Shown piece after piece: positions 30,313 through 47,759 of a DNA stretch of 64,000 nt. This DNA is from an uncultured Candidatus Bathyarchaeia archaeon. Its GTDB lineage: Archaea > Thermoproteota > Bathyarchaeia > Bathyarchaeales > Bathyarchaeaceae. Each line of letters begins with the position of its first letter. Position 1 is the first letter of the stretch. Both the position numbers and the translations under genes were made by a program. A model generated the notes under the pieces. That model was not told the DNA's origin and ran no database searches. It was given only the letters and a program-made list of their open reading frames with translations. Where the stretch lies: assembly GCA_964618695.1 (NCBI GenBank), contig CAZUDX010000001.1, positions 268,886 to 332,885 on the forward strand, given 5' to 3'.

Positions 30313-31524
30313 TTGAGTTTTGGTTTCCCCACTGAAACTATAGCGGAGGGCGAAGTTAAAGTGGTGGTGCCCAAACTTGCTGCTTACGTGAAAAAGCCTT
30401 GGGAGTACGCTCCTTCTAAGGCGCCCGTATTTTACAACCCAATCATGGAACTGAACAGAGACTTGGCAGTTTTAGCCTTGCAAACGTACCAAAAGATGTT
30501 GGAACGAGAGTTCTCAGTTTGTGAGCCTCTAACTGGATGTGGACTCCGTGGTGTAAGATTTGCAGTAGAGGTGGAAGGCGTCCGACAAGTTATTGTAAAC
30601 GACATTAACCCAAAAGCAGCCAAACTTGCTGCCTACAATGCCGAAGTCAACAAAGTGGATAGCAGGGTTGAAGTTGCCAACGAGGACGCAAACCTTTTTC
30701 TCAGCAAACATGCGGCGCCTCGAAAACGGTTTAACTATGTTGATGTTGACCCTTTCGGTTCTCCCGTTCCCTACCTAGATGCTGCTCTACGGTCTTTGCG
30801 CAGTGGAGGTTTGATTGCTTTAACAGCCACGGACATGGCTCCGTTGTGTGGAGTTCATCCCCGAGCCTGCCTCAGAAAATACGGTGGATACCCTTTACGT
30901 GCAGAGTATTGTCATGAACTGGCTGTTCGCCTCTTGGTCGGATGTTTAGTTATGGTGGCTGCTAAACATGAGATAGGCGTCGAAGTTTTGTTCAGCCACA
31001 GCGTTGACCATTATGTCCGAGCCTACGCAACAGTCAACTACGGTGCGAGACGAGCAGACAAGAGTGTGGGACTGATGGGTTACATTCTTCATTGCTTCTC
31101 GTGTTTTCACAGAGAAACATCGTTGGGAATAATTTCTCCCCTAAAACAGGTTTGTCCAGAATGCGAAGCGAAGTTGAGTGTCGCTGGTCCCCTGTGGCTG
31201 GGTGAGATTGCGGACAAAAACTTCTGTTTTCTGATGGAGAAGGAGGCGGAGGGAAGAAGTTTGAGACAGCAAAAGAGACTTCTCAAGCTGATATCGTTGG
31301 TTAAGGGCGAGGCTGAAGCGCCAGTCACCTATTATACTGTCGACAGAATCTGCGACAAGCTGAATCTGCCCATTCCAGCCCTAAAGAAAGTGATGGAAAA
31401 AATAAGAAAAATGGGGTTCCAAGCAACACCAACACATTTCAACAGCCGAGGCTTCAAAACAGACGCCCCAGCAAACAAGATAAAAGAGGTTATAACAGAC
31501 CTTGCAACCCAAAGTTCAGCGTAA
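30313..31524 (+). CDS. trm1: tRNA (guanine(26)-N2)-dimethyltransferase
   Basis: 403-aa ORF with FYNPIMELNRDL, EPLTGCGLRGVRFA, DVDPFGSP, and a Cys-cluster C-terminal domain. Confidence 0.9.
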   Translation: MSFGFPTETIAEGEVKVVVPKLAAYVKKPWEYAPSKAPVFYNPIMELNRDLAVLALQTYQKMLEREFSVCEPLTGCGLRGVRFAVEVEGVRQVIVNDINPKAAKLAAYNAEVNKVDSRVEVANEDANLFLSKHAAPRKRFNYVDVDPFGSPVPYLDAALRSLRSGGLIALTATDMAPLCGVHPRACLRKYGGYPLRAEYCHELAVRLLVGCLVMVAAKHEIGVEVLFSHSVDHYVRAYATVNYGARRADKSVGLMGYILHCFSCFHRETSLGIISPLKQVCPECEAKLSVAGPLWLGEIADKNFCFLMEKEAEGRSLRQQKRLLKLISLVKGEAEAPVTYYTVDRICDKLNLPIPALKKVMEKIRKMGFQATPTHFNSRGFKTDAPANKIKEVITDLATQSSA

Positions 31525-32118
31525 AGCTAGTTTTTTGTAGATTTTCTGTTTTTCTTTATCAGCTTTGGTTTGAATGTCTTGGAAGAGGTTGTTTCCGTGG
31601 GCGTCGATGGCTACTGTTAAAGGTCCGAAGTCCTCAACTTCCAATACCCACATGGCTTCCGGCATCCCCAAGTCACTCCACTCCACGCTCTTCACACCTT
31701 TGATGGTTTTGGCTGCTAGAACTGCGGCTCCTCCAGTGAAGGCTCCGTAGACCGCTCCATACCGTTTCATGGCGTCAACGGTCTTTTTGCCCATTCCTCC
31801 CTTTCCGATTACAACCCGAACCCTGAAATTCTTGATGAATTCGTCTTCGAACAGTTCCATGCGTGAACTTGTAGTTGGACCAGCAGCCACCACCTTCCAT
31901 TCGTCATCCTCCTTTTTTGTTATCGGACCACAGTGAAAAAGCGCTAATCCCTGTAAATTGAGGGGAAGGTTCTTTCCTTCTTTTTGGAACTCTAAGGCTC
32001 TTCTGTGGGCTGCATCCCGTGCAGTGACAACTGTTCCAGTAATATAGACGGTGTCGTTCACCCCAAGCTTTCTAACTTCTTCCTCCGAAATAGGGGTTCT
32101 AAGCTTGTAGACTGCCAT
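31516..32118 (-). CDS. Class I (Fe-S) fumarate hydratase / tartrate dehydratase, beta subunit
   Basis: GTVVTARDAAHRR...GPTTSSRME...GKGGM...GGAAVL are typical motifs. I prefer the start at MAVYKL (ATG at 32118), just 4 nt after the alpha-subunit stop. The track ORF extends to 32208. Confidence 0.85.
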   Translation of the reverse strand: MAVYKLRTPISEEEVRKLGVNDTVYITGTVVTARDAAHRRALEFQKEGKNLPLNLQGLALFHCGPITKKEDDEWKVVAAGPTTSSRMELFEDEFIKNFRVRVVIGKGGMGKKTVDAMKRYGAVYGAFTGGAAVLAAKTIKGVKSVEWSDLGMPEAMWVLEVEDFGPLTVAIDAHGNNLFQDIQTKADKEKQKIYKKLALR

Positions 32119-32122
32119 AATT

Positions 32123-33004
32123 TCACACCACGTCATGAGTAAGGTACTCAACTTTTCCTTCAGAACTGATTCGGGCTGAGGCTCTCCTTGCAGCCCAGCA
32201 CTGAACAACTACCGCCACTGGATACGATGCGGGGTGCCTGTGAGCATAGTCAACTTTCACATCCAAAACTGTGGTTTTGCCTCCTAGCCCCATGGGTCCG
32301 ATTCCTGTTTGGTTCGCAGCTTCACGCAGTTCCTGTTCAAGTTTTGCCAGTTCAGGATTGGGGTTAGGTTGATTCAAGGGTTTCAGAAGGTTTGCCTTGG
32401 CTAGTTTCAATGCTATGTCAGCTCCTCCGCCTACTGCAACACCTAAAATCGTTGGGGGACAAGGCTTTGCACCCGCATTAACCACAGTATCGATGACGAA
32501 CTTCTTGAGTCCCTTTAAGCCTTGGCTTGGACTTAGCATACCTAGGGCAGAAACGTTTTCGGACCCGCCTCCCTTGGGCATAACCGTGATTTCAAGTGCG
32601 TCTCCTGACGTCACTTCCCAGTGTATGTGGGGAATGAATCTTCCTGTGTTGTCTCCCGTGTTCTTTTGGGTGAAGGGGTCAACGGCGTTGGGACGAAGAG
32701 GCACCTCGCGGGTAGCCTTTACTGTGGCTTTGCGGAGAGCTTGCTCAACTTTGTCTAACCCCGCTACTTGGCTTCCGGCTTTCACATAGAAGGTGACGAC
32801 GCCAGTGTCTTGACACAAGGGAACCTGCTGTTTCTCAGCCAACTCGACGTTTTTTAGTATAACTTTGAGCTGAGCCTTTCCCACTTCGCTCTCCTCTTCA
32901 CGATACGCCCGCTGGAGAGCCTCCTTCACGTCTCGCGGCAACTCCGTGGCTGCCAGTTGCAACAGTTTGAAAGCTACGTTCTCTACAACCTTCCCCGTTA
33001 CCAA
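32123..33004 (-). CDS. Class I (Fe-S) fumarate hydratase / tartrate dehydratase, alpha subunit
   Basis: 293-aa ORF with PLCQDTG, MPKGGGSEN and CPPTILGVAVGG motifs of the Fe-S hydro-lyase alpha domain. Confidence 0.9.
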   Translation of the reverse strand: MVTGKVVENVAFKLLQLAATELPRDVKEALQRAYREEESEVGKAQLKVILKNVELAEKQQVPLCQDTGVVTFYVKAGSQVAGLDKVEQALRKATVKATREVPLRPNAVDPFTQKNTGDNTGRFIPHIHWEVTSGDALEITVMPKGGGSENVSALGMLSPSQGLKGLKKFVIDTVVNAGAKPCPPTILGVAVGGGADIALKLAKANLLKPLNQPNPNPELAKLEQELREAANQTGIGPMGLGGKTTVLDVKVDYAHRHPASYPVAVVVQCWAARRASARISSEGKVEYLTHDVV

Positions 33005-33151
33005 AACCGCTTCCTCTCCTTTCAGAGCAGAGTTAGACGATTAATCTTATACTTTTTGCTACCAATTCTCATCGAATGTTTTATCAGTTTCATGGTTCAA
33101 CTTAAATATGCACCACACTATTGCTTTTAAATCTGGAAATGAGACGCCAAA

Positions 33152-34132
33152 ATGAGTGAAGAGGCAACCATAGACAAAAAGAAGTATGAATGCTTGGAAG
33201 ACCTTGGTATAGGTCCAGCCATATCAAAGAAGCTTCGGGAATTAGGATTCCACACCATCGAAAATCTTGGAATGGCTACTGCTAAGGAGTTAGAGCAAGC
33301 TGGAATAAGCAAACAAAAAGCTGTGGAATTGATTCGCAAAGCACGTTCATGCATGCCCCTTCCCTTCATCCGAGGAGACGAACTGCTGAAGATGCGGAAA
33401 ACCGTTTCGCGTCTGACAACGGGAAGCAAAATGTTAGACAAACTGTTGGATGGAGGCATTGAGTCTCAATCTATCACAGAATTCTACGGAGAATTCGGGA
33501 GTGGAAAAAGCCAGATTTGCCATCAGCTGTGCGTAAACGTGCAGTTGCCTCCTGAACGAGGCGGTTTAGAAGGTGCAGCCCTCTACATAGACACGGAGAA
33601 CACTTTCAGAACAGAACGCATTATCCAGATGGCGAAGAATTTGGGCTTAGACCCGGAAGAGGCTATTAAGAACATCATTTTTGCTGAGGCGTACACGTCG
33701 GATCATCAGATGTTTCTGTTAGAGAATGCAGATAAGGTGATTAAAGAAAACGGAGTCCGCCTGATTATTGTGGATTCTTTGACTTCTCACTTCAGAAGCG
33801 AATATCTGGGCAGGGAGATGTTGGCTGAGAGACAACAGAAACTCAATAAACACCTTCACAGGTTGATTAGGCTGGCTCGCGCCTTCAATGCTGTAGCTGT
33901 TGTTACAAATCAGGTTATGTCCAAGCCAGACGTCTTCTTTGGCGACGCCATACATCCAGTAGGCGGTCACATAGTGGCGCATACTAGCCACACACGTATT
34001 TTTCTTCGAAAATCTGCCCGCGGACCAGTGAGAATCGCCCGACTTGTTTCCAGCCCTCACCTGCCGGAAGGGGAAGGAATTTTTATGGTTACTGAAAGAG
34101 GAATAGAAGATGCCAACCAAGAGGAGAGATAA
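33152..34132 (+). CDS. radA: DNA repair and recombination protein RadA
   Basis: 326-aa ORF with an N-terminal HhH domain ([19 protein letters not shown]), Walker [10 protein letters not shown], Walker B LIIVDSL, and VVTNQV. Confidence 0.95.
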
Positions 34133-34138
34133 AAACAG

Positions 34139-34504
34139 ATGCCCATTTCAAAGATTTTTGTAGCCAGATTCTTTCAGCTTGTGAAAGGAAGACGGTTCGC
34201 TGAAGCGGAGCGGGTACTCGAACGAATGAGATCAAAGACAAACGAAACCGAATGGAACAGCGGATACCTGCATGCTCTCGACGGCATGCTTTCTACCGAA
34301 AAATCAAGCGACTCCTACGCGTTTCTGAAGAACCTAAATCTCGATAACGAAAGTGAGCTAAAAAAATTCAGAAGAGAGTTTTTGAGGGAGTCAAGAAACA
34401 AGATTCACGCGGATTACGACCGGGGCTTCTATTCGGCTTGGGCAGATTACATGCGCATGTCAATAAAGACCCTAACAGACCAAGAAGTGCCCAAAAAAAG
34501 TTAA
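34139..34504 (+). CDS. Hypothetical protein
   Basis: 121-aa ORF starting 6 nt after the radA stop. Helical and charged, no motif recognised. Confidence 0.45.
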   Translation: MPISKIFVARFFQLVKGRRFAEAERVLERMRSKTNETEWNSGYLHALDGMLSTEKSSDSYAFLKNLNLDNESELKKFRREFLRESRNKIHADYDRGFYSAWADYMRMSIKTLTDQEVPKKS

Positions 34505-34604
34505 TTCTACGCGGTTAAAAGCTAAACAACTAAAACTGCAGAAGACTAGCGAAAAAGACCGTTAAGTCATAGTCCACATACGTGGAGCGGATCATGGTTC
34601 ATAT

Positions 34605-34835
34605 TTGAAGACTAATAACAGCAGTATGTTGAAAACAAAATTTTTCTATGAATTCTACAGAGAAGCAAAGAAAGATTATCCGATTCCCGAAAATGTTGAA
34701 ATACAATATAAAGAGTATCGAGAAAAATACAATGCTTTCTTAAGAGATTTTAGAAAACTGTGTCACAGAGTGAATGAAGAGATTGGAGAAACAACTCTTC
34801 CCGAATATGTTGGTGACTTCGCAAAAAAACTTTAG
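34605..34835 (+). CDS. Hypothetical small protein
   Basis: 76-aa ORF with a TTG start, rich in charged and aromatic residues. First gene of the more AT-rich islet. Confidence 0.35.
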   Translation: MKTNNSSMLKTKFFYEFYREAKKDYPIPENVEIQYKEYREKYNAFLRDFRKLCHRVNEEIGETTLPEYVGDFAKKL

Positions 34836-34938
34836 TTAGAGATTAAGAATTCTTGACTTCACTTGAAGTCAGGGCATGGGAAAAGGAATAGAAAAATCGT
34901 TTATATGACTTCAAATAATTTTAATTGGGGGAACAATC

Positions 34939-35685
34939 GTGACGAGTACTTTTACAATTTTTTGTCCTCATGGTATCGTTATGTCTGCTGATAGTCGTAT
35001 TACATACACCGATGCTATAACCAATGAAATATTAAGATATGTTGACGGAGTAGAGAAGGTTTATCATGTAAAAAAAGTAAATTTGGGTATTTCTTATTGG
35101 GGATTGGCGGAAATTCAAGATAAATCAATGCTAGATTTTCTAACTGAATTTGAAGAGACACAATTAGATGAGGGCGATTCTTTTGATGAGGTTGCAGAGG
35201 AATTAAAAAACCGTCTTGAACATGTAGTACCAAGAATCCGCATTAGAATGGGGTTGCACTTAGCGGGTTATGAAAAGAGGGGAGATGAATATACACCTAG
35301 ACTTCGACATATTTTTCATGAGCGATGGCATCCTTCAGGGGAATTCACTAATGAAGACAGTAACATAGAATGGCATCGAGAAGGCGAGCGAATACCCTTT
35401 CGGTCACGGAGGTTATTTCCAGTCCTATTTAATGGGGATAATGCGATAGCAAACTGTCTCTTCAACTACATACCAGCTATGACAAACGGAAGGCAGAGGA
35501 TAAGACCTGAAGTGTTGACACTTGATGAATGTTTAGAATTAGCTGAACTTGTCGTAAGTCTGTCAATCCAAAGACTCAATTATTACGTTGATACTAGACT
35601 TGAAAGAATCCCAAAAACAGTTGGGGGAAAAATTTTCGTTGCAAAAATAACGCCAACGAAAGGGTTTGAATGGGTCAAAAACTAG
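34939..35685 (+). CDS. Proteasome-beta/HslV-like N-terminal-nucleophile (Ntn) hydrolase-like protein
   Basis: 248-aa ORF with a GTG start. M-TSTFTIFCPHGIVMSADSRIT aligns by eye to archaeal proteasome beta TTTVGITLKDAVIMATERRVT. This places Thr directly after Met, an acidic residue at position 17 and Arg19. EKVYHV then matches the Lys33 segment (KKLFQI) after a 6-residue insertion. Confidence 0.55.
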   Translation: MTSTFTIFCPHGIVMSADSRITYTDAITNEILRYVDGVEKVYHVKKVNLGISYWGLAEIQDKSMLDFLTEFEETQLDEGDSFDEVAEELKNRLEHVVPRIRIRMGLHLAGYEKRGDEYTPRLRHIFHERWHPSGEFTNEDSNIEWHREGERIPFRSRRLFPVLFNGDNAIANCLFNYIPAMTNGRQRIRPEVLTLDECLELAELVVSLSIQRLNYYVDTRLERIPKTVGGKIFVAKITPTKGFEWVKN

Positions 35686-35830
35686 CTAGTCATATCTGAA
35701 GAACCAGTTTCTGCGGGTCTAACACAACAATAATTACTTTGTTTTCAATATAGACGCAATTCAGCACTAACAATGTTTCGAACACAAATCTTTTTACTTA
35801 TTAACTACGATTGTTTTTCGTTGTGAGTCC

Positions 35831-36301
35831 TTGAACATCAAGAAATATGTTTTCTTTGTTTCACACAGCACCGAAGACATGAAGGAAGAGGTTGGCGAGA
35901 TTTGTTACATTTTTAAAAAGTGTCACATCAGTAGTTTTGTGGCAGATAGAGATGCTCCAGTGGGTAAACCACTTCCTGATGAAGTCAAGAAGGCAATACG
36001 TGAAAGTGATTTATTTTTAGTATTTTTGACTGAGAAATCAGTAAAAAGTGCTTGGGTAAATCAAGAGATAGGATATGCTCTAGGAATTGGAGTTCCAGTT
36101 ATCCCTATTAAGAAAGAAGGCGTAAATCCCGAAGGTTTAATCGAATCAACAAAATATATCAACATGCAAGAAAATCCTTTAAATACTGTTCGGGAAATCT
36201 TTTCAAGACTCAAGGGTAACAAATTAAGTCCAAAAGCTAAGGCAAGCATCATTACATTCATAGGGGTATTGGAATTAAAAGAAAAGTATGGAGGTCATTA
36301 A
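35831..36301 (+). CDS. TIR-like domain protein
   Basis: 156-aa ORF with a TTG start. VFFVSHSTEDMKE...ISSFVADRD...IRESDLFLVFLTEKSVKSAWVNQEIGYA...PVIPI follows the TIR / DUF1863 pattern, including the conserved Glu after W-x-x-x. Confidence 0.7.
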   Translation: MNIKKYVFFVSHSTEDMKEEVGEICYIFKKCHISSFVADRDAPVGKPLPDEVKKAIRESDLFLVFLTEKSVKSAWVNQEIGYALGIGVPVIPIKKEGVNPEGLIESTKYINMQENPLNTVREIFSRLKGNKLSPKAKASIITFIGVLELKEKYGGH

Positions 36302-36773
36302 GTTGACTTTTAAAGTTTTTCTTGTTTCTAACATAGAAGACAGGCAACTAGCTAATGACTTGACAGAAGCTTTAGAACGCTATCAGATAAAAGTAGTTTC
36401 ACATTCGGAAATAACTCCGTTTCAATCCTACAGGTTACAAGTTGATAATCTCATAAGAACTAGTGACTGTGTTTTGGTATTTATAGGGCAGAGAGGAAGG
36501 CAAACTGATGATATGAATTATGAAATTGAAAGGGCTATAAAATCAAACCGCATAATTATTCCTCTTGTTGAGAAGGGGTCGGATGTACCAAGAGCCATTA
36601 GAAAAATGAAGTATATCGAAGTCAATAGAAGACAACCGCAAACGAGCTATGAACGAGCAGCAAAGTATCTTGAAGGATTAAAAATTGAAAAGGAAAGAAG
36701 AGATGCACTTGGAGGATTATTGTTACTTGGTCTAGGCATTCTATTATTGGCTGCTTTAGCTTCAGGAGATTAA
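36288..36773 (+). CDS. TIR-like domain protein with a C-terminal transmembrane helix
   Basis: 161-aa ORF overlapping the upstream TIR gene by 14 nt. FKVFLVSNIEDRQLA...IRTSDCVLVFIGQ...MNYEIERA...IIIPLV is TIR-like. The C-terminal segment ALGGLLLLGLGILLLAALASG is hydrophobic. Confidence 0.6.
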   Translation: MEVIKLTFKVFLVSNIEDRQLANDLTEALERYQIKVVSHSEITPFQSYRLQVDNLIRTSDCVLVFIGQRGRQTDDMNYEIERAIKSNRIIIPLVEKGSDVPRAIRKMKYIEVNRRQPQTSYERAAKYLEGLKIEKERRDALGGLLLLGLGILLLAALASGD

Positions 36774-36932
36774 CAATTGCTTTGTTTTTAATCCTGTTAA
36801 CAAAATTTTTCCTGAAAACAACAACCGAAAAGCAGATAGGAACTGCATTCAGATTTCCAATCCTTTTCCAATAAAGATATTAACTGAACCCGTCTCCACA
36901 CTAAATACCACAAAAATTTTCTTATTGGAAGT

Positions 36933-38474
36933 TTGAAGATGGCTGAACCGTTAATTCCAAGTTACAAAAAACTGCTCGAAAAGATGAAAGACATAGTTAC
37001 TCTTCATTCAGCAGCCTCGATTCTCCACTGGGACATGGAAACGAAGATGCCCCCAAAGGGAATCGTGATGCGAAGCCTGCAGCTTGCTATGCTTAGTCGA
37101 ATAGGTCACAAAATGAGCACAGACCCGGAGATTGGACGTTTGCTGGAAGAAACCATAAAAAGTCCAGAATACAGCCGACTTGAATCTGTTCACAAAAGGA
37201 ATCTTTACCTGATAAAGAAGAATTATGAAGAGCAAACTAAGCTGCCCGAAGAACTTGTCGTCGAAACTTCGAAACAGCAAGCCATAACAATTGACACTTG
37301 GAAGAAAGCGAAAGCCGCCAAAAATTTTCTCAAATTCAAGCCTGAACTTGAGAAACTCTTTAACTTGAGGAAGAAGGCAGCTGAAATCTTGATGGAAGTC
37401 AAGGAGACCACTACGCCATACGATGCGTTGATAGATGTTTTCGAACCAAAAATGACCTCCAAATCAATCAGCAACGTTTTCAAAGAACTGAAAGAAGGTC
37501 TAATCTCTGTATTACGGAAATGCGAGGCATCAACGAAACAGCCGGACACATCAATCCTCGACTGCCGAGTCCCAATCGAAACGCAACAGAAAATTGGCAA
37601 ATTAATCGCTGAATTCATTGGATACGACACCGAATCAAAGGAGTCTGGAGGCAGAATTGACGAGACAGAGCACCCCTTCACAACAGGATACTACGATGAC
37701 GTGCGAATCACAACACACTATTATCCAAACAGATTCGCTTCTTCCATCTTCTCCATTTTACATGAAGGGGGACATGCCCTCTACGAACAAAACCTGAAAC
37801 CAGAATGGATATTCCAGCCAGTGGGAGACGCGTGTTCAATGGGGTTCCACGAATCCCAGTCCCGCTTCGTAGAAAACATAGTGGGAAGGTCACGAGAATT
37901 CTGGACCTATTTCTTGCCCAAATTGAAAAAGCTAACTGGCGGAGTCCTTTCCGACGTGAATCTGGATGATTTTGTCCACGCTGTTAACCACGTTATGCCG
38001 TCAAAGATTCGTGTTGAAGCAGACGAAGTAACCTACGGGTTGCACGTTATCATAAGATTCAACCTTGAAAGAGACCTTTTCGCAGGTAAAATAGTGGTGG
38101 ATGAGCTTCCACAGGTTTGGAACGAAAGTTACAGGGAGTTTTTGGGTGTGGAGGTTGAAGATGACTCTGAGGGTGTGATGCAAGATACCCATTGGGCTAG
38201 TGGATTATACGGTTACTTTCCAAGCTACGCATTGGGCAATATCTATAGCGGGCAGATATTAGCAAGTATGGAAAAAGAACTTCCGAAGTGGAAAAACCAA
38301 ATCTCTGAAGGCAACTTCAAAAACGTGAAACAATGGCTGGTCAAAAACGTTCACAGCTATGGAGACCTATACGACCCCCCAGAACTCATAAAAAATATCG
38401 CTGGAAAAGAACTATCCGTAGACCCATACATTAACTACTTACACGAGAAATATTCCAAACTTTACGAATTCTAG
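36933..38474 (+). CDS. Carboxypeptidase, M32 family (Taq-like metallocarboxypeptidase)
   Basis: 513-aa ORF with the HEGGHALYE zinc motif, HESQSRF, and DTHWA...GYFPSY. Confidence 0.9.
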   Translation: MKMAEPLIPSYKKLLEKMKDIVTLHSAASILHWDMETKMPPKGIVMRSLQLAMLSRIGHKMSTDPEIGRLLEETIKSPEYSRLESVHKRNLYLIKKNYEEQTKLPEELVVETSKQQAITIDTWKKAKAAKNFLKFKPELEKLFNLRKKAAEILMEVKETTTPYDALIDVFEPKMTSKSISNVFKELKEGLISVLRKCEASTKQPDTSILDCRVPIETQQKIGKLIAEFIGYDTESKESGGRIDETEHPFTTGYYDDVRITTHYYPNRFASSIFSILHEGGHALYEQNLKPEWIFQPVGDACSMGFHESQSRFVENIVGRSREFWTYFLPKLKKLTGGVLSDVNLDDFVHAVNHVMPSKIRVEADEVTYGLHVIIRFNLERDLFAGKIVVDELPQVWNESYREFLGVEVEDDSEGVMQDTHWASGLYGYFPSYALGNIYSGQILASMEKELPKWKNQISEGNFKNVKQWLVKNVHSYGDLYDPPELIKNIAGKELSVDPYINYLHEKYSKLYEF

Positions 38475-38631
38475 GCGAAGACGCCATTCGAGATGCTGTT
38501 TTTTGTGCGGGATGTCCTACCTGACCAGTTGATTAATCAAACTTTGAGAAGTAGTGAAATTTAGCCGATTCACAATAAGGTTTAAAAGAGATTTCCTGAA
38601 TAAAAGCTGTAAATTCGTTGGAGGACCTGAA

Positions 38632-38904
38632 ATGGTTGAATTTCCAGAGGAAGTTGTAAAGAAAGCGTTTGGCGCTGCAGACGGTAGATGCGAATGCTTG
38701 CTTGTAGAACATGGACATAAATACAATTCTATGTGCATGAGAGTACTCGATTGGACTAAACGAGGGCAGTCTTTCATTGCGGCTGATGGGCAAAAAGGCT
38801 GGGAAGCACATTGGATAGTAAGCCCAGAAAAAGGCGGGAAACCTACACAAGAAAACTGTGAGATACTCTGCTGGGACTGCTACACCAAAAAGAACAAACG
38901 CTAA
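38632..38904 (+). CDS. Small Cys/His-rich protein, HNH-nuclease-like
   Basis: I prefer the ATG at 38632, preceded by GGAGG. RCECLLVEHGH...GWEAHWIVSPEKGGKPTQENCEILCWDCY resembles an HNH/His-Me finger in which Tyr replaces the last His. Confidence 0.45.
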   Translation: MVEFPEEVVKKAFGAADGRCECLLVEHGHKYNSMCMRVLDWTKRGQSFIAADGQKGWEAHWIVSPEKGGKPTQENCEILCWDCYTKKNKR

Positions 38905-39118
38905 ACAATTGCGGCTCTCTTTTTCATTAATTGAATTCGTACAAATATTTTCTAAAACACAGAAGGTCTTGCAAAAACACCGCAGGTTGTTTTTTTCCTC
39001 ATTTTTACGGTTATATTTTGAATTGAGGATTGTGTGAACTTTTTAAGTTTAGTGAGACAATAGTTAGTAGTGTAGTTTCTAGGCTGAAAACACTTGATGA
39101 TGAGCTGGAGGTGAAATT

Positions 39119-39409
39119 GTGGATAAATTTGAGCAAGTTATGCAGATGATGTCTCAGATGACAGAGGAAGAGCGAATGAAGACAGTCGAATCCAACAAAA
39201 CTCTTTGCATCTGTCCTGACTGCCCCACATACAATGAATGCGCACAAGAAAAAGGCGAAATATTCTACTGTGCAATGGGTAAAAGCCCAACATGCATCAC
39301 CAAAGGATTAGGATGCATATGCCCGACCTGTCCAATAACGGAAAAGATGGGTCTCACTCACGATTATTTCTGCACAAAAGGAACAGAAAAAGAACAAAGA
39401 GAAATGTAA
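39119..39409 (+). CDS. DUF2769-like cysteine-rich protein
   Basis: 96-aa ORF with a GTG start after GGAGGTGA. It has the repeated pattern CICPDCPTYNEC ... CICPTCPI. Confidence 0.65.
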   Translation: MDKFEQVMQMMSQMTEEERMKTVESNKTLCICPDCPTYNECAQEKGEIFYCAMGKSPTCITKGLGCICPTCPITEKMGLTHDYFCTKGTEKEQREM

Positions 39410-39441
39410 AACAAAAAAAGGCGTGCTTCTCTTCCAGCAAT

Positions 39442-41445
39442 CTATTTCATTTTACCTCTGCCCAAGGGGATGAAACGCTGTATCTCCTCTAGGGGAATCT
39501 CTACAATTCTTTCTTTCATAGATTCAGAAACTTTTTTGGACAACTGATGCCGTATCTTTTTAGCAAGCTGACTGCTCTTCTGCTCTCCCGGAACAATCTC
39601 CACATAAACATCCGTCTGACAGGCGATAGCGTCCACCGGACCCCCAACCACCATAGTTTCTTCCTCATCAGTTATAGCTCCAACGGCGACCTGCAAAGAG
39701 ACACCACGAACAAAATTTTTTGATCCACGAATCATAAAGGAGCCTTTCTTGAGGAACTGCCCAGAGGGAGGAGATTTACTCACCTGAGCTGGATTCACCC
39801 AATAAACATTCACTGCACTCAACATCTCTCTCCAAGCTCGGGAGTAGGAGGCTGCGAGCTGTGCTGCTTCTTGGATAGTTCGTTCTGGTGGAGTTTTTCC
39901 CTCTGTCTTGATCAGAACGAAGGGTGCTCCCAATATTTCGGCGTGGAAAACAAGGTCTTTGGGTTCCATGTGCCGTTTGATGAGAATCTCGTTTGTGGTG
40001 GCGTCTCTGCCTCCTATCACGAGGAAACCGTCAGAGGAACGGAACCACCTGAACTTCTCAAACCACTCCCTTTTTTTCCGCTTGGCTAAGGGTCGATGTG
40101 TTGCTTTCACCAATCCAACCTTTTTTTCAAGTTCTTTGATCTTGGCTCTAGTCTCATGAAGGGTCTTCTCGGCGCCCTTGAGCTTCTTTTCAGCTTTCTT
40201 AGACCGCGAGTAATATTTGTTCGCGTTGGCTTGGATGGAATGGCGGAGGTTAAGCGAAAAAACTTGGTTTTCCACAGAAACATGAAGAACCTGATTTTTA
40301 GGTTCTAGCGAGTGGAAGTAAACCTCGGGAAGCTGATTGGTTCTCTTTCCCTCTTCGACGAGCGCGATTATTTCTTCCCAAGATTTGCCGCTGTTTTTCT
40401 TTTCCATAATCTTTTGGAGGAGAGATTGAAGCTCCCCAAAGTGCAGGTAAATCAGGTCTCCAATAGTCTTGTTTTTTACAATCGGTTCCTTCAAACTCTC
40501 CAAAGCTTTCTCTTGTCTCTGAAGAATCCGCTTGTGTCTAGCGACTTCGTCCTCAACTTCTTCGGTGGTCTCACTCTCCATCTCTTCAGAGGTCATCTTA
40601 GCGTAGTAGTCATCAAGGGCTTTGTTGAAGTTTTCATACTTTTCTTGACCGAATTTAACATGCTTTTTCAGCGGCACTGGAGTTACGTCAATCCACCTGT
40701 CATCTTCGCCAAATACGATACGAGGTTGCAGAGTTCCTGAGGCGATAAGGGAAAGAAGCATTTGGAGCTGGGTAAAGATGCTTTCAAGTTCCTGTTCTAT
40801 GAGAGATACACAGTCAGTTTTTTTGTCAACTTCTGCGCGGAGAAGGATTTCTTCGGCGTAAGTTCCGCTGATGCTCAAGAAATTAGTTAGAGCCCTCACT
40901 ATTTCAGTTTGCCCAAGCTCTTTTATTTCCATGAAATCTTCCAAGTTCATGTTGAGAGGGTTCCTACCTCTTGCAGGTGGATGCTGAAAGATTTCGCCAC
41001 GCAGAATGTTTCTGTCCCGCATTCTCTTATAGGTCATAGCCTGCAGAATCTTGCTTTCCGGATCAACCAAGATGACGTTTCCTCCACCGAAAAGCTCTGA
41101 AACCAACCGAAAGTCGCCTTGTCGCGTCCTAATTTCCACTATTGCTATCCGTTCGAATTCATGTTGCCGAACCTCTTTAACCACGCCGTTATTGAGATAT
41201 TTTCTGAGTGCCATGCAGAACGAAGAAGGCTTTTTTGGAGTCTCATGCACGTAGGAGGTTAGATGGAGCCGTTTTCCAGCTTCAATCAGCAGATGGAGTC
41301 GAGGCTGGTCTGGTTTCCGAAGCTTAAAGAGCAATGTGCGGGAGCCAATCTGATAAATTTTGGAGACATGCGCACCTTCAACTAATCCGTTAATTTCTTG
41401 GGTGACTGCAGCTACATCGAAGCTCGTCATTACTTCCTTCAACAT
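39442..41445 (-). CDS. NFACT-family ribosome quality control protein (Rqc2/FbpA homologue)
   Basis: N-terminal NFACT-N region (FDVAAVTQEINGL...SKIYQ), a long coiled coil, and NFACT-R/DUF814 (FRWFRSSDGFLVIGGRDATTNEILIKRH...DLVFHAEILGAPFVLIK). The start is probably MLKEV (41445). The track ORF extends to 41532. Confidence 0.85.
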   Translation of the reverse strand: MLKEVMTSFDVAAVTQEINGLVEGAHVSKIYQIGSRTLLFKLRKPDQPRLHLLIEAGKRLHLTSYVHETPKKPSSFCMALRKYLNNGVVKEVRQHEFERIAIVEIRTRQGDFRLVSELFGGGNVILVDPESKILQAMTYKRMRDRNILRGEIFQHPPARGRNPLNMNLEDFMEIKELGQTEIVRALTNFLSISGTYAEEILLRAEVDKKTDCVSLIEQELESIFTQLQMLLSLIASGTLQPRIVFGEDDRWIDVTPVPLKKHVKFGQEKYENFNKALDDYYAKMTSEEMESETTEEVEDEVARHKRILQRQEKALESLKEPIVKNKTIGDLIYLHFGELQSLLQKIMEKKNSGKSWEEIIALVEEGKRTNQLPEVYFHSLEPKNQVLHVSVENQVFSLNLRHSIQANANKYYSRSKKAEKKLKGAEKTLHETRAKIKELEKKVGLVKATHRPLAKRKKREWFEKFRWFRSSDGFLVIGGRDATTNEILIKRHMEPKDLVFHAEILGAPFVLIKTEGKTPPERTIQEAAQLAASYSRAWREMLSAVNVYWVNPAQVSKSPPSGQFLKKGSFMIRGSKNFVRGVSLQVAVGAITDEEETMVVGGPVDAIACQTDVYVEIVPGEQKSSQLAKKIRHQLSKKVSESMKERIVEIPLEEIQRFIPLGRGKMK

Positions 41446-41621
41446 CTTCCCCTCAACGGACACGAAACAAACTTTCCAACATAAATGGAGAGAACCTCGT
41501 TCATATTCCTTTTCCGTTACATACAACCGCAAAAAGGTGCCGTTTTAGCCCACGGAAGGGCATACAAAGAATTTCATAAAAGATTTTATCATTCAATGAA
41601 TATTAGTATTAATGAGACAGC

Positions 41622-42785
41622 ATGAAACTTATGTGGCCAATTCTCATAATTATCCTGCTACTTTCCGCCATTAGTTTACCCATTATCTATAACGCGCACA
41701 TCAAAGCTAATGCTGAGGATGATTTCTTTTTCGGCGTCTCCTTTGGGGGAAAAACAGCCAGCCAAGCAAAGCTTCTGATTGATAAGGTTAAGGGGTACAC
41801 AAATTTTTTTCTCATAAACAGTTGGGACATAGCCATTAACGAGACGGCTCTGAATGAAGTCAGCGAATACGCAGTAGACGCAGACTTGCATTTTATGGTG
41901 TTCTTCGATTTTATCTCCCGCGTTGTGTACCCGTGGCATCAAACATGGTTGGATACTGCAAAGGATAGATTTGGAGACAAATTCTTAGGGATTTACATCT
42001 ACGATGAACCCGGAGGAAAACAAATCGAGACTGGACAATGGGATGAGGGAGAATGGCTGAAGTCTGTATTCATGAACGTGTCAGACTACAGTGAAGCAGC
42101 AGAAGCATTTGTTTCCACTATGCCTCAAAGCAACAGTTGGGTTGATTTGCAGAGCAGAAATATAGCGATGTTCACTTCAGATTTTGCTCTTTACTGGTTC
42201 GATTATCTGGCAGGATATAACACTATCTTCGTTGAGCTAGGATGGAACCACAACCGAACCCAACACATAGGCCTAAACAGGGGAGCCGCAAATGTGCAAG
42301 AAAAAGATTGGGGAGCCATCATCGTGTGGAATGCAAGGGACCCAGAAGACGACGAGAGAGGAATCTACAAGACTGGACCCGAAATGCTTGAAGACATGAA
42401 AGTAGCCTACCAAGCGGGAGCAAAATACGTAATCGTGTTCAACTATCCTTACGATCAAACTTTTGGCATATTGGAAGATGAACACTTCGAGGCAATGGAG
42501 ACATTCTGGAATCTTACACAATCACCACAAGATTCTCTGGAAAAAGTGAAGGCGGAAGTAGCTTTTGTTCTCCCCAAAGATTACGGTTGGGGCATGCGAT
42601 GGCCAGAAGATAGAATTTGGAAACCAGAATGGGGTCCCGATAACAGTTCTCTGCTGATTTGGGAAAACATGAACAAACTGATCGAAAGATACGGTCTCAG
42701 GCTGGATATAATCTATAATGACACGAGATTCGATTTCACGGAGAAATACTTGGAAATCTATTACTGGAACAGCCAAATCCCCTGA
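41622..42785 (+). CDS. Exported/anchored protein with a glycoside-hydrolase-like (TIM-barrel-like) domain, paralogous to the N-terminal domain of the 1223-aa protein
   Basis: 387-aa ORF with N-terminal signal/anchor MKLMWPILIIILLLSAISLPII. FLGIYIYDEPGGKQIE and QAGAKYVIVFNYP parallel LLGIIVQEITGKQVDI and FYGAKYFFFEQG in the protein at 53068..56739. Confidence 0.5.
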   Translation: MKLMWPILIIILLLSAISLPIIYNAHIKANAEDDFFFGVSFGGKTASQAKLLIDKVKGYTNFFLINSWDIAINETALNEVSEYAVDADLHFMVFFDFISRVVYPWHQTWLDTAKDRFGDKFLGIYIYDEPGGKQIETGQWDEGEWLKSVFMNVSDYSEAAEAFVSTMPQSNSWVDLQSRNIAMFTSDFALYWFDYLAGYNTIFVELGWNHNRTQHIGLNRGAANVQEKDWGAIIVWNARDPEDDERGIYKTGPEMLEDMKVAYQAGAKYVIVFNYPYDQTFGILEDEHFEAMETFWNLTQSPQDSLEKVKAEVAFVLPKDYGWGMRWPEDRIWKPEWGPDNSSLLIWENMNKLIERYGLRLDIIYNDTRFDFTEKYLEIYYWNSQIP

Positions 42786-42860
42786 CAAAAACTATTTAGG
42801 AAACGAAAATAACTAAAGCAACATCACCTATCACTGAAAACCGTAAACGATCTGCAAGGG

Positions 42861-43406
42861 ATGAAAATGAAACCTCTTAAACTCATTTATTGGATTCGAG
42901 TCGTATTAGGCGTCGTTGCCGCCCTGATAACTACTCTTGTGATAGACCTCAAGGTAGGCGACCCCCTCATAAGCGGCATTTCCATCGGAATAATCTTCTA
43001 CATCATCACCTATTACATTCTTAAATGGCAGTTCCTGAATAAGGTAGAAAAGCCGCCCAAGATTTTCACAATGGGAATAGGCGCTTACTTTCTCGCATTC
43101 ATTCTATGCTGGACACTATTTATCACACCCTTTCTAACGCCCCCCACTGCTACTTTCACTATGACTCCAAACGAAAACCTCGAGGTTGGACAAAGCATAC
43201 TCTTTGACGCAAGCGCCAGCATTGATCCTGACGGAACAATAGTCAAGTATGTTTGGTATTTCGGAGACGACAACAAAGGAACCGGAGAGACAATCAATCA
43301 CACCTATGCCTCAGCTGGAGATTATATCGTTACACTTAGAATCAAAGATAATCAAGGAATAGGCAACGGAACTGAAAAGACTATTACAGTGAGCCCTGCA
43401 CCTTAG
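42861..43406 (+). CDS. Membrane protein (3 TM) with a C-terminal PKD domain
   Basis: 181-aa ORF. FDASASIDPDGTIVKYVWYFGDD...HTYASAGDYIVTLRIKDNQG is a PKD domain signature. Confidence 0.75.
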   Translation: MKMKPLKLIYWIRVVLGVVAALITTLVIDLKVGDPLISGISIGIIFYIITYYILKWQFLNKVEKPPKIFTMGIGAYFLAFILCWTLFITPFLTPPTATFTMTPNENLEVGQSILFDASASIDPDGTIVKYVWYFGDDNKGTGETINHTYASAGDYIVTLRIKDNQGIGNGTEKTITVSPAP

Positions 43407-43572
43407 TGGCAAACATTTCACTATTTCTTTCATACGGATGAGGACAGAAAAGCTAGGAGAACTGTAGGTCTAGAAAACGAAAAAATTTTGTTTTCAACAA
43501 TCTGCTGTTATTAGTCCCCTAATAGAAGCAATATTTGCTTCAGGTGTGTACCCTGTTGTTTGTGGGTGCACG

Positions 43573-44073
43573 TTACTTCATTGTTAGATACCATAGCACG
43601 ACTAGGGCTAGACATGTGAATAGGTCGGGCAACATAGCGAATGGCCCAAGGCCAATTCCTCGGAAACCAAAGATGCTTTGCATCAGCGGATTTGAGACAA
43701 GAGCGTAGAGAAGTAAAACCATTGAAAATATTATCAGTCCGATTGTGAATTCTGACTTTAGTTTTTTGTATATATCCACATATGTGATCAATAGAAAGAC
43801 TAACAGTGTAGCGTTGATTGTGGAAAGCACTGTTTTAGCGGTGTAGTACAATTCTATGTCTCCGCTGTTGAACCACTCTTGGTCCCAATCGCCATTATTA
43901 AATGGGGGTGGAAGAGGGTGCCTAGGTTCCCAAATTGGGGTTGGAGTATTGGTGGCGGCCCAGTAAGCTGAGAGCAGAGTCACCACTGCCAAAACCGTAA
44001 GCATTAACAAGACTTTCACTTTTCTATTCATAATAAGGTTCACTTCTTTTCCTCCCTTTTTTGCTTTTTCCAT
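43573..44073 (-). CDS. Integral membrane protein paired with the upstream wHTH regulator
   Basis: 166-aa ORF with 3-4 TM helices. Overlaps the regulator gene. An alternative start is MNRKV at 44031. Confidence 0.55.
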   Translation of the reverse strand: MEKAKKGGKEVNLIMNRKVKVLLMLTVLAVVTLLSAYWAATNTPTPIWEPRHPLPPPFNNGDWDQEWFNSGDIELYYTAKTVLSTINATLLVFLLITYVDIYKKLKSEFTIGLIIFSMVLLLYALVSNPLMQSIFGFRGIGLGPFAMLPDLFTCLALVVLWYLTMK

Positions 44074-45544: not shown

Positions 45545-46987
45545 GTGAAAGATTTGGGTGTCGTCACCAGAGCATTGAGAAATGTTTCACGAAGAAAAGT
45601 CAGAGTGTTGCTAGTAGTGGTTGCTCTGAGTTTATCCATGGCAATCTTGGTCTCCATTCCAGCCGGCATAATGGCTAATCAGGAAGCTGCTGAGGAGCTA
45701 AAATCGGATTATGAAGAATATTTGGGAAATATAACGAAAGAGATCGAAGAAGCACACACACTATTGGAAGTTGGTTATACAGGCGGCGGTTCTCCGGGAG
45801 GTGGCGGCGGATTCCCCGAGGGCGGCGGAGGTTTTCCAGGAGATGGCGGAGGTCCCCCAGCGGGTTTCGAAGGCAGACCCCCAGGTTTCTTCCGAGGCGG
45901 CGAAAACTACCTCAATGAGAGCCTGATTCTTGAAATCGAAGCTCTTGAAGGTACAAGTGTTGCTATACCTTTTTTCGAAAAAACTGAAGGGACAAACCAA
46001 ACAGTCACAACCCCGTTTGGTATGAGTGTCGAAATGCTTGTTCCAGACTACACCATAGTAGGTGTGGTTCTAGATAACGAGGTTATCAATTACTATAATG
46101 TATTGCCGAATATCATTCTGGAAGGCAGAAACTTGGAAGAAGGAGATACTGAAGCTGTGCTTCTAAGTTTGAACAGCACCGACTATTTTGATGCAGGCGT
46201 AAACGACCAAGTGGACATATTAGGAAATACCTTCACGGTGGTGGGCATTTATGATGACGCAGATATTCTTGGATTGAACAGAGCGTACATGAGTCTCTCC
46301 GAAGCTCAGGCAATAACTGACCTTGAGGGACAAATAACGAGTATAGACGTTTACGCAAAAAACGAATCCATAGTAGACGAATTGGCGCTGGAAATATCCG
46401 CATTAGACGAAAATATCACAATTACCACATACGAAACCCGCTTAAGTTCAATCGAGTTCAGGGCAGAAATGGCTGAAGAAAACCTGGAGATGGCTGAAGC
46501 AACTCTCAGTCAAACCCAAGCCATTGCTTATCAGGAAATCGGCATAGCCGTTGTCGCCACATGTTTGATTGTGTTCTTCACAATGTTGTACACTGTGCGA
46601 GAGAGAACAAAAGAAATTGGCGTGCTCAAAGCTATAGGTTTCAGCAACGGAAACGTCATGAGCCAATTCATGCTTGAAGGGATAATAATAAGTGTAATCG
46701 CCGGGTTGATTGGCGTTGTATTAGGAACAATTGCTGCACCCGTACTATCGACCGCTCTGTTACCATCAACTACCCCTGTTAACAATGGTCCCATTAACAA
46801 CACACCATTTGGCGGTAGCCGAGTTAACATTCCAGGGGTATCTCTTCCATCAACTGTAGCTATCCCCAGAATTGAGCTTTTGGTGCTTGTTTTCACAGGC
46901 GCCATACTACTGGGAGCCTTAGGTACGCTTTACCCAGCGTGGAGAGCCTCAAGAACTAGTCCAATGGAGGCGTTGAGACATGAGTGA
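45545..46987 (+). CDS. ABC transporter permease, MacB/FtsX type, with a large extracytoplasmic domain carrying a Gly/Pro/Phe-rich insert
   Basis: 480-aa ORF with an N-terminal TM helix, a periplasmic-type domain, a C-terminal FtsX 3-TM bundle (RTKEIGVLKAIGFS) and PMEALRHE. The insert is GGGSPGGGGGFPEGGGGFPGDGGGPPAGFEGRPPGFFRGG. Confidence 0.85.
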   Translation: MKDLGVVTRALRNVSRRKVRVLLVVVALSLSMAILVSIPAGIMANQEAAEELKSDYEEYLGNITKEIEEAHTLLEVGYTGGGSPGGGGGFPEGGGGFPGDGGGPPAGFEGRPPGFFRGGENYLNESLILEIEALEGTSVAIPFFEKTEGTNQTVTTPFGMSVEMLVPDYTIVGVVLDNEVINYYNVLPNIILEGRNLEEGDTEAVLLSLNSTDYFDAGVNDQVDILGNTFTVVGIYDDADILGLNRAYMSLSEAQAITDLEGQITSIDVYAKNESIVDELALEISALDENITITTYETRLSSIEFRAEMAEENLEMAEATLSQTQAIAYQEIGIAVVATCLIVFFTMLYTVRERTKEIGVLKAIGFSNGNVMSQFMLEGIIISVIAGLIGVVLGTIAAPVLSTALLPSTTPVNNGPINNTPFGGSRVNIPGVSLPSTVAIPRIELLVLVFTGAILLGALGTLYPAWRASRTSPMEALRHE

Positions 46988-47759
46988 ATTAGCCCTTAAA
47001 ACAGAAAACCTAGACAAAATATTCAAACTAGGAAAACGCGAAGTTCGAGCATTATCGGACGTAAACCTTGAGATTAAGAAAGGCGACTTCGTTTCAATCA
47101 TGGGTCCTTCAGGGTCCGGCAAAACCACGTTACTCAATGTTTTAGGGTGCTTGGATAAACCAACCCATGGAAAAGTGAGTCTCGACGGAATTAACGTAAC
47201 AGCGGTTCCTGAAAAAGCACTCTACCAAACAAGAAAAAATAAGGTTGGATTTGTTTTTCAAACGTTCAACCTGATGCCTTGGCTAAACGCTATCGAAAAC
47301 GTGGAACTTCCAATGGAAGGCACAAAAAAGACAAAAGATGAAAGACAGAAGAGGGCCCGTGAACTATTAGGGATGGTCGGGCTATCCCAAAGAATGGAAC
47401 ATAGACCACACAAATTGAGTGCAGGAGAGCAACAACGAGTTGCAATCGCAAGAGCCTTGGCAAACAATCCAGCCATAGTATTGGCGGACGAACCCACAGG
47501 AAACTTGGACGTAAAAACCAAGTATGAAATCGTTAGACTGCTAGGCAAATTGAACAGCGAACAAGGAACCACAATTATTATGGTAACCCACGACAGGCAA
47601 GTAGGTTCACGGGCAGGCAGAATGCTCTTCCTAAACGACGGAAAACTGCTGAAAAAAGAGAGAAAAGGTGCACATTTTACGAAGCTCAAATGTTCCAATT
47701 GTGGAAAACCAGTCCAACTAGATGATACTTTCTGTGCGGGTTGTGGCAAGAAACTGTAG
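46980..47759 (+). CDS. ABC transporter ATP-binding protein (MacB/LolD-like) with a C-terminal zinc ribbon
   Basis: 259-aa ORF with Walker A GPSGSGKTT, Q-loop, signature LSAGEQQRVAIARAL, Walker B LADEPTGNLD and H-loop VTHD. The tail is CSNCGKPV...CAGCGKKL. Confidence 0.9.
   Translation: MSELALKTENLDKIFKLGKREVRALSDVNLEIKKGDFVSIMGPSGSGKTTLLNVLGCLDKPTHGKVSLDGINVTAVPEKALYQTRKNKVGFVFQTFNLMPWLNAIENVELPMEGTKKTKDERQKRARELLGMVGLSQRMEHRPHKLSAGEQQRVAIARALANNPAIVLADEPTGNLDVKTKYEIVRLLGKLNSEQGTTIIMVTHDRQVGSRAGRMLFLNDGKLLKKERKGAHFTKLKCSNCGKPVQLDDTFCAGCGKKL

Follow-up and report, generated by a model that had tools for sequence, protein, structure and literature searches.

An acquired block in a Bathyarchaeia genome with a solitary proteasome-like hydrolase gene and a TIR gene pair: probably two separate conflict-type modules

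Introduction

Between radA and an M32 carboxypeptidase gene of an uncultured Candidatus Bathyarchaeia archaeon, on a 64,000-nt stretch of contig CAZUDX010000001.1 (this whole stretch is called the window throughout), lies a short islet which encodes a 248-aa protein resembling HslV and the proteasome beta subunit, a predicted N-terminal nucleophile (Ntn) hydrolase, together with two small TIR proteins, TIR-A and TIR-B. The islet is a 2.2-kb acquired block which probably carries two independent, separately mobile modules of conflict type. The Ntn gene and the TIR pair are independently distributed; since they occur apart elsewhere, they are regarded here as two separate candidate defence modules and not as one system. 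A pathway leading from TIR proteins to a proteasome-like protease is unsupported, so that one striking claim becomes two modest ones. Both modules are undescribed: neither is represented in Pfam, NCBIfam, PADLOC or Rfam, nor in the literature searched; the kinds to which they belong, T1-type Ntn hydrolases and TIR conflict proteins, are known. Archaeal defence repertoires are poorly charted.

The acquired block and its junction

An initial annotation of this DNA had described four open reading frames (ORFs) in the islet, and all of them are found, on the + strand. They lie between radA (Pfam Rad51, E 3e-91) and the M32 carboxypeptidase gene (E 4e-182), as had been proposed, but a further ORF of the ancestral flank, p121, which separates radA from the islet, had been overlooked. 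The main features of the locus are the following:

34139-34504, 7 nt after radA: p121, 121-aa ORF, ancestral, between radA and the islet; GC 44.5%
34605-34835, + strand: p76, 76-aa ORF, from the ORF list; GC 31.6%
34634-34646, + strand: left copy of the direct repeat AACAAAATTTTTC, at the insertion junction, from base-by-base comparison with the sister contig L064
34647-36811, no strand: inserted block, 2,165 bp long, comprising the insert-specific DNA and a single 13-nt repeat copy, from the empty site in L064
34939-35685, + strand: Ntn gene, 248 aa, GTG start; GC 38.3%
35831-36301, + strand: TIR-A, 156 aa, Pfam TIR_2; GC 35.2%
36288-36773, + strand: TIR-B, 161 aa (156 aa from TTG 36303), Pfam TIR_2; GC 36.0%
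36799-36811, + strand: right copy of the direct repeat AACAAAATTTTTC, at the insertion junction, from the same comparison

The islet is identified as a 2,165-bp insertion because a sister genome of about 96% identity has radA, p121 and M32 without it. The sister contig L064, from a sister metagenome-assembled genome (MAG), was reached through a p121 relative of at least 90% identity. Its gene order is fumarase, radA, p121 and M32, with about 270 nt separating the last two, and window positions 30815-34645 and 36799-38474 align to it at about 96% identity; the two alignments share 12 nt at the junction, and L064 has no DNA between them. The repeat AACAAAATTTTTC is present in a single copy in L064 and in two copies in the window, where the exact 13-mer is found at the two junction positions and nowhere else; with one mismatch allowed, it has 5 window matches against 0.67 expected, a number reached in 0 of 100 shuffles. 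The GC content of the block is 35.8%, compared with 46.9% and 43.2% in the 5 kb to its left and right, 46.4% in radA and 43.5% in the M32 gene, and a GC scan of the window gives 0.34-0.40 across approximately 34250-37000 against 0.45-0.53 upstream. This dip had been taken to be modest; it is real and exceeds that estimate. Missing from a 96%-identical sister, low in GC and with a direct repeat at its ends, the block 34647-36811 is a horizontally acquired, repeat-bounded insertion, in agreement with the conflict-type islet that had been suspected. The pair of filled and empty sites, with a defined 13-nt junction repeat, is usable for studying cassette insertion in Bathyarchaeia.

One of the four ORFs can be set aside. 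The first 41 nt or so of p76 belong to the ancestral flank and the remainder to the insert, so that the ORF crosses the junction, and a search of 5.8 billion proteins returned no homologue except p76 itself. It is probably a fortuitous ORF or a remnant. On these two grounds, lack of homologues and position across the junction, p76 was rejected as a component of any system, and its earlier listing as an islet member is not maintained.

The predicted Ntn hydrolase

The AlphaFold2 (AF2) model of the 248-aa protein has a pLDDT of 92.7 and a pTM of 0.90. When compared with the PDB by Foldseek it gives 135 hits at E <= 0.001, with 20S proteasome beta subunits in the lead and Anbu also among the top hits, at a probability of 1.0; one of these beta subunits is that of Thermoplasma, 6bdf (E 6e-8, TM-scores 0.53/0.64). 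The HslV/proteasome-beta-like Ntn fold proposed for this protein has therefore been confirmed by structure prediction and comparison. At the sequence level the protein stands apart, since no Pfam, NCBIfam or PADLOC model is matched above threshold and no PDB sequence is retrieved by phmmer. The score on NCBIfam TIGR03634 (arc_protsome_B) is 11.5 bits against a cutoff of 224, Pfam PF00227 gives no hit, and distant relatives of the protein reach 14-17 bits at most on PF00227. As the thresholds of both models are missed, the protein is assigned to a separate family within the Ntn fold superfamily. A match to PADLOC PDC-S09 (E 0.005) was rejected, being found in 1 of 33 family members and 0 of 10 distant relatives.

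The close homologues, 54 in number, come from Bathyarchaeia MAGs and bear no functional names (some are called 'hypothetical protein'). The family N-terminus reads M-T-S-T-F-T-I-L-C-P-x-G-I-V-M-A-A-D-S-R, with M-T-S-T in all full-length members; Asp18 is invariant and Lys40 nearly so in the family alignment, and the motifs GxSxWG, FNGDN and VGG are kept. A comparison of the family profile with PDB sequences retrieves mature beta subunits of archaea and eukaryotes (E approximately 0.05), with Thr2 placed on their Thr1 and Asp18 on their Glu17/Asp17; Lys40 corresponds roughly to Lys33, an equivalence drawn from motif position and not from structural superposition. A profile search of 1.84 billion cluster representatives recovered 1,205 relatives; among the best 147 of them, the Thr is present in 80 of 81, the Asp in 132 of 133 and the Lys in 127 of 134 aligned sequences, and 109 of the 119 full-length proteins begin with Met-Thr, Met-Ser or Met-Cys. 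From the model and these alignments, the 248-aa protein is predicted to be an Ntn hydrolase of the proteasome-beta/HslV type with its Thr directly after the initiator Met. In four Ntn loci a GTG or TTG start codon immediately precedes ACG-AGT-ACT, which means that the NCBI call of 234 aa, starting from Met15, removes the nucleophile.

A beta-hairpin insertion occupies residues 104-153 (consensus LRHIFHExWHxxGEFTNENCHxExH), in which Trp130, Glu139 and Glu144 are invariant. Across the family H107 and H124 are invariant, and H127, H131 and H142 are conserved in at least 90% of members. This His cluster suggests a metal- or ligand-binding site that is absent from canonical proteasome subunits.

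The edges of the module and its neighbourhood were defined from 48 loci with Ntn homologues (39-88% identity), 36 of which are non-redundant. Comparison with L008, which holds the closest copy, gives the following feature:

34881-35711, + strand: Ntn module, a stretch 90% identical in nucleotides to L008 (88% in amino acids), from blastn

The module consists of the gene, 58 nt upstream and 26 nt downstream, and homology to L008 ends there. Its upstream region, aligned with L008, L009 and L004, contains the TATA-like sequence TTTATATG (approximately 34902-34909) and a G-rich ribosome-binding stretch. Clustering of the neighbours over the 36 non-redundant loci yields no conserved partner gene, and no conserved ATPase or alpha-type neighbour. 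The genes found nearby include integrases (4), Eco57I/MmeI-type type IIG restriction-modification (R-M) genes (3-4), Cas1 (2), GmrSD (2) and PLD (2), as well as AIPR with Mrr, AbiJ, a Cap17-like nucleosidase, DndB/DpdB, HsdR/HsdM and Orc1/Cdc6. NAD-salvage-type genes also adjoin some Ntn copies; L028 (346-1410) and L047 (867-1946) share a three-gene block for proteins of about 355 aa, about 200 aa and a cytidylyltransferase/NMNAT-like type, and the 355-aa protein is 31-33% identical to the product of window ORF 46980-47759 (over window 47034-47651).

A viral contig carries a further copy. L063 (IMG/VR UViG_3300050336_000128), from a putative tailed archaeal virus, contains at 5986-6771 an intact Ntn homologue of 46% identity, which begins with M-T-S-T and has the cement/HK97-type capsid genes on one side and the tail tube gene on the other. 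Its GC content is 39.3%, compared with 48-51% in the structural genes. The operon is otherwise tight, yet a gap (250 and 186 nt) lies on either side of this copy. With this low GC and these gaps, which are signatures of morons, the copy looks like a moron-like insertion.

The TIR pair

Both small proteins are TIR-like, as had been proposed: TIR-A scores 65.2 bits and TIR-B 46.3 bits on Pfam TIR_2 (PF13676), well over the gathering score of 28, and the AF2 model of TIR-A (pLDDT 79.9) matches the solved TIR NADases RPP1, SPARTA TIR-APAZ, AbTir, SARM1 and SpbK. The catalytic Glu is kept in both, again as described earlier. In TIR-A it lies in W75-V-N-Q-E79, which is invariant in 30 of 30 family members, where the C-terminal helix is conserved as well; in TIR-B it lies in M76-N-Y-E79, and 8 of 9 orthologues retain it, L059 having Gln at this position. 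The C-terminal transmembrane helix ascribed to TIR-B corresponds to the hydrophobic tail ALGGLLLLGLGILLLAALA (residues 140-158; approximately 36705-36761), of mean Kyte-Doolittle hydropathy 2.53 and nearly invariant across orthologues, as IGGLLLLGLGLLLLGALASSD, so that the C-terminus is predicted to be a tail anchor.

Similarity to ThsB appears to be of a generic TIR kind: the hits to PADLOC ThsB models (E-values between 1e-9 and 1e-4) cover only a portion of the model, and on Pfam ThsB_TIR, whose cutoff is 21.2 bits, the two proteins score 28.5 and 22.1. NCBIfam ThcB4 (NF058526), of type III Thoeris, is weakly matched by the window TIRs, with 26.6 and 21.1 bits against a cutoff of 220.

Some uncertainty concerns the starts of both genes. 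Because TIR-B orthologues begin with M-T-F-K-V-F, its likely start is TTG 36303, one base past the TIR-A stop; the 14-nt overlap of the two TIR genes noticed in the initial annotation exists only if ATG 36288 is used, and disappears with the homology-supported start. The NCBI call for TIR-A starts at Met17 (140 aa; window 35831-35878 is affected) and thereby drops YVFFVSHS, which forms the first beta strand. The longer forms of both the Ntn protein (34939-34980) and TIR-A (35831-35878) are favoured by conservation within the families and by the GTG/TTG starts. As the NCBI calls lose the catalytic Thr of the former and the first strand of the latter, both would escape automated annotation.

TIR-A has 33 close homologues, and the pair was inspected in eight contexts besides the window. 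A TIR-B orthologue stands directly 3' of TIR-A wherever downstream DNA exists, usually with a 4-nt ATGA/GTGA overlap, and across the nine contexts it is the sole gene conserved with TIR-A; neither SLOG nor any other effector was found beside the pair in any of the nine. The neighbours include HEPN_AbiV, HEPN_Swt1, PIN, HsdR, integrases, IS110, Fic and RelA_SpoT, and in L054 the pair lies amid ribosomal protein genes. The pair has been seen in Bathyarchaeia-type archaeal contigs only, and a search of viral contigs with TIR-A gave no match.

Two of these contexts deserve separate mention. In L057/L058 (5001-5790) a decayed TIR pair lies next to HEPN_AbiV and PIN genes; the N-terminal half of TIR-A has been lost, and a stop codon in TIR-B precedes a tail-anchor coding sequence that can still be read. 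In L055/L056 (6225-8123) the pair is directly followed on its 3' side by a gene for a ParA/CbiA-like ATPase and then by a RelA_SpoT-domain (small alarmone synthetase-like) gene, which may represent another conflict module in the same island.

In the window, a direct repeat named D2 (21 nt, 18/21 identical; 35729-35749 and 36772-36792) exactly flanks the TIR pair; read on the opposite strand, its core TTTGTTTTCAA corresponds to a part of the insertion-site sequence. D2 was considered as a cassette boundary and rejected, as the flanks are unconserved in the eight other loci and the core motif TTGAAAACAAA occurs at chance level, with 8 matches in the window against 6.0 expected. The bracketing is probably coincidental.

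One system or two modules

The distribution of the two parts favours two modules. In every one of the 48 Ntn loci the Ntn gene is the only match to the islet region of the window, and no relative of p76, TIR-A, TIR-B or p121 is found in any of them; relatives of the TIR pair are likewise missing from all 36 non-redundant loci (0/36). Conversely, the Ntn gene is absent from the eight other TIR-pair contexts (0/8), even when the Ntn profile is applied at E <= 10. Pfam and PADLOC scans of 139 Ntn neighbours revealed no recurring TIR family, and the borderline candidates near Ntn genes proved not to be TIRs, the best of them (in L038) being a Cap17-like nucleosidase. These counts speak against the initial annotation where it joined TIR and Ntn proteins in one system, and the recurrence of the trio as a neighbourhood, which it had proposed as a check, is not observed: the trio is conserved nowhere else. 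Its remark that no pairing of TIR proteins with a free-standing Ntn protease was known does stand, as no description of one appears in the libraries or literature searched.

In the explanation favoured here, the block entered the genome where a conserved intergenic element terminates on its 3' side, in the interval that separates the ancestral pair radA-p121 from the M32 gene. Its first module would be the solitary HslV/proteasome-beta-like gene, with a promoter-like region of its own and no fixed partner, whose product, after removal of the initiator Met, would expose a Thr1 nucleophile accompanied by the equivalents of Asp17 and Lys33. The gene would move as a single-gene cassette among the borders of defence islands and integrase genes, with at least one tailed archaeal virus apparently carrying a copy. 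Its product could be active as a Thr hydrolase that needs no partner, serving as a self-contained protease or amidase which takes part in virus-host conflict on the side of defence or of counter-defence. The second module would be a tightly coupled operon formed by a cytosolic TIR-A, with a strictly conserved catalytic site, and a divergent TIR-B held at the membrane. Both proteins may assemble into a membrane-tethered hetero-oligomer which, once triggered, would cleave NAD+, leading to its depletion or to the production of a signal, and the pair could in this manner act as a self-contained abortive-infection-type module in need of no separate effector. The enzymatic activities, the TIR hetero-complex and the defence role of both modules are to be understood as putative.

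Several points weigh against this explanation. The sister genome lacks the Ntn gene, TIR-A and TIR-B alike, and no stage in between came to light; the three genes may have arrived as one block, already adjacent in the donor, which would leave room for functional coupling in this lineage. Given that they are jointly missing from the sister, the single-system hypothesis keeps a small share of the probability. The local hidden Markov models (HMMs) of TIR-A and TIR-B are of low sensitivity and could have missed a very divergent TIR beside one locus or another: their positive control failed, an unrelated TIR_2 protein of L054 being reached only at E 0.04-0.08. Flanks of at least 1 kb are available on one side in 29 of the 36 non-redundant Ntn loci, and on both sides in 19. 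Many of the genes beside Ntn copies are of the housekeeping sort (aldolase, POR, TBP), and the Ntn protein itself reaches the threshold of no PADLOC or Pfam model. Finally, catalysis by TIR-B may be dispensable, since the L059 orthologue has Gln in place of the Glu.

Of the other explanations, that in which the TIR pair and the Ntn protein form one Thoeris-like system, a TIR nucleotide signal activating a protease effector, is very unlikely. The three genes are adjacent, lie on the same strand and are jointly absent from the sister genome, the invariant His-rich insertion of the Ntn protein could be a ligand site, and type IV Thoeris, as outlined in the sources cited below, offers a precedent in its TIR protein and caspase-like protease. 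However, apart from the lack of co-occurrence in either direction (0/36 and 0/8), the Ntn gene is preceded by a conserved promoter-like region of its own, the homology to L008 stops at the edges of the module, and a spacer of 145 nt with T-runs separates the gene from TIR-A. Moreover, the Ntn protein contains no recognised signal-sensing domain (SLOG, Macro, SAVED, etc.), and the paper which annotates 29 putative Thoeris effector types mentions neither a proteasome nor an Ntn term in its text. It is equally improbable that, in this lineage, the membrane-tethered TIR pair senses infection and an NAD+-derived signal switches on the Ntn Thr hydrolase; if true, an Ntn protease would here be the effector of a Thoeris-type pathway, built from two otherwise independent modules and moved as a 2.2-kb block. 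Likelier than such a coupled pathway, if still tentative, is the proposal that at least one of the two, the tail-anchored TIR cassette or the solitary Ntn, is a new self-contained archaeal defence or counter-defence set.

The Ntn gene might instead be primarily a gene of viruses or other mobile elements, encoding a virion-associated or counter-defence protease, with the window copy as cargo or a remnant and the TIR pair as an unrelated defence cassette. The intact homologue amid the capsid and tail-tube genes of L063 would fit with this, as would the fold shared with tailed-phage proteins (TM-scores 0.64/0.71, the highest of any library searched), the rank of integrases as the commonest Ntn neighbour and the low GC of the gene wherever it is found. 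Nevertheless, this remains unlikely: the Ntn protein was found on 1 viral contig among 2.9 million and in none of 50,697 phage and 72,556 plasmid records, virus structural genes are missing from the 25 most frequent Pfam/PHROG families listed for the 139 cellular neighbours, and the L063 copy resembles an inserted moron and not a core structural gene. Morons are frequently host-benefit or defence genes. There is even less room for a role unrelated to conflict, in which the TIR pair, associated with the membrane, would metabolise NAD+ or nucleotides or serve as a scaffold for housekeeping or regulation, the Ntn protein would be a niche peptidase or amidase, and the islet would reflect accessory-gene turnover. 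No defence-model threshold is reached, and some contexts are of housekeeping character (ribosomal protein genes in L054; aldolase, POR and TBP near Ntn copies). Against this very improbable reading stand the patchy distribution, with the block missing from a 96%-identical sister genome, the recurrence of both modules next to R-M, Cas1, Abi, HEPN, PIN and integrase genes, the decay of the L057/L058 copy, the foreign GC and a catalytic motif common to immune TIR NADases. The reading with two independent conflict-type modules is therefore kept as the probable one.

Comparison with known systems

The closest relatives of the Ntn protein by fold are those of the T1 family (20S beta, HslV, Anbu and BPH), with which it shares the same alpha-beta-beta-alpha architecture (TM-score up to 0.64, for the Thermoplasma beta subunit; Anbu 5nyg is also matched). 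As in HslV, the Thr directly follows the initiator Met, and the equivalents of Asp17 and Lys33 are nearly invariant in the family. On the other hand, the window protein is only 10-17% identical to T1 members, is about 50 residues longer, has the His-rich beta-hairpin insertion and carries FNGDN in place of the GSGS loop. Its gene also differs in having no alpha subunit, HslU-type ATPase or Anbu-operon partner nearby, and is solitary, patchy and mobile. The best structural matches of all are phage Ntn-like proteins of the BFVD, namely A0A8S5LJV3 of Siphoviridae sp. ct3o911 (0.64/0.71) and, at 0.59/0.52, A0A142KAQ6 of Gordonia phage Nymphadora; identity to these phage proteins is 15-17%, and the phage records mentioned above (50,697) contain no sequence-level match. 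The partner-less Thr-Ntn superfamily, of which some 1,200 cluster representatives are counted, adds to the family tree of proteasome, HslV and Anbu, and it may indicate an unrecognised protease class in virus-host conflict.

Among TIR systems, the nearest precedent for the single-system idea is type IV Thoeris, which is outlined as a ThsB TIR protein with the caspase-like protease ThsE (bioRxiv 10.1101/2024.10.24.620036; introduction of 10.64898/2025.12.03.692087). In the window, too, TIR genes adjoin a protease gene in an acquired islet. In so far as type IV is outlined in these sources, the window differs in that its protease is of the Thr-Ntn and not of the caspase-like Cys type, the linkage is not conserved elsewhere, there are two TIR genes, one of them membrane-anchored, and no signal-binding domain has been identified. 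Type III Thoeris, which comprises several TIR proteins and a SLOG effector (cited in 10.64898/2025.12.03.692087), resembles the window, as far as that citation describes it, in having more than one TIR per operon, and its ThcB4 is weakly matched by the window TIRs; these scores are, however, far under the cutoff of 220, and no SLOG is present in the islet or in the other contexts. Thoeris systems of any type are recognised by operons in which a TIR gene is constantly accompanied by a dedicated effector gene, for a sensor of what the TIR protein makes; the only gene conserved with TIR-A is TIR-B. In the paper with 29 putative Thoeris effector types, TIRs lacking another associated gene type were removed by design, and some Thoeris types are rare in archaea according to the same work.

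The TIR pair is better compared with the effector-less TIR NADases, such as SpbK of B. subtilis, AbTir and the TIR of SPARTA TIR-APAZ, which the TIR-A model matches and whose WxxxE motif is kept. A direct NAD+-cleaving role would fit, since no separate effector gene lies beside the pair. In contrast to those proteins, the window has an obligate-looking pair of distinct TIR paralogues whose genes abut or overlap, one being tail-anchored. A translationally coupled pair of distinct TIR proteins of this kind, with one tail-anchored member and no separate effector, would be a new architecture of TIR immunity, and the assembly of hetero-TIR complexes at a membrane could be studied on it in a simple setting. 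The literature searches found nothing that links proteasome-like proteins to anti-phage defence, and no prokaryotic TIR/TIR-TM pair.

Surroundings of the insertion site

The block was inserted at the oligo-T 3' end of a conserved stretch, an element some 70 nt long which is present twice in the window:

34575-34648, + strand: conserved element of about 70 nt with an oligo-T 3' end, downstream of p121; kept in the window, L064 and L065
43477-43550, - strand: second, inverted copy of the element, just downstream of a gene

The element (...GGTTCATATTTGAAGACTAATAACAGCAGTATGTTGAAAACAAAATTTTT) lies 3' of p121 in three genomes (in L064 at 3761-3836 and in L065 at 3376-3448). No Rfam match was obtained at E <= 1 over 34000-44000, and the consensus fold is weak and shows no covariation; for these reasons its identification with a known RNA was rejected. 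It could be a terminator or an element of the 3' untranslated region, a small RNA or a recombination target.

A second difference from the sister genome is found between the M32 gene and a small HNH gene, where 95 nt of the window (38475-38569) correspond to about 1.6 kb of L064 (5496-7098). The extra DNA of L064 encodes a 235-aa methyltransferase and contains a PEMT-family gene of 198 aa. The stretch from radA to NFACT as a whole is a hotspot of gene turnover.

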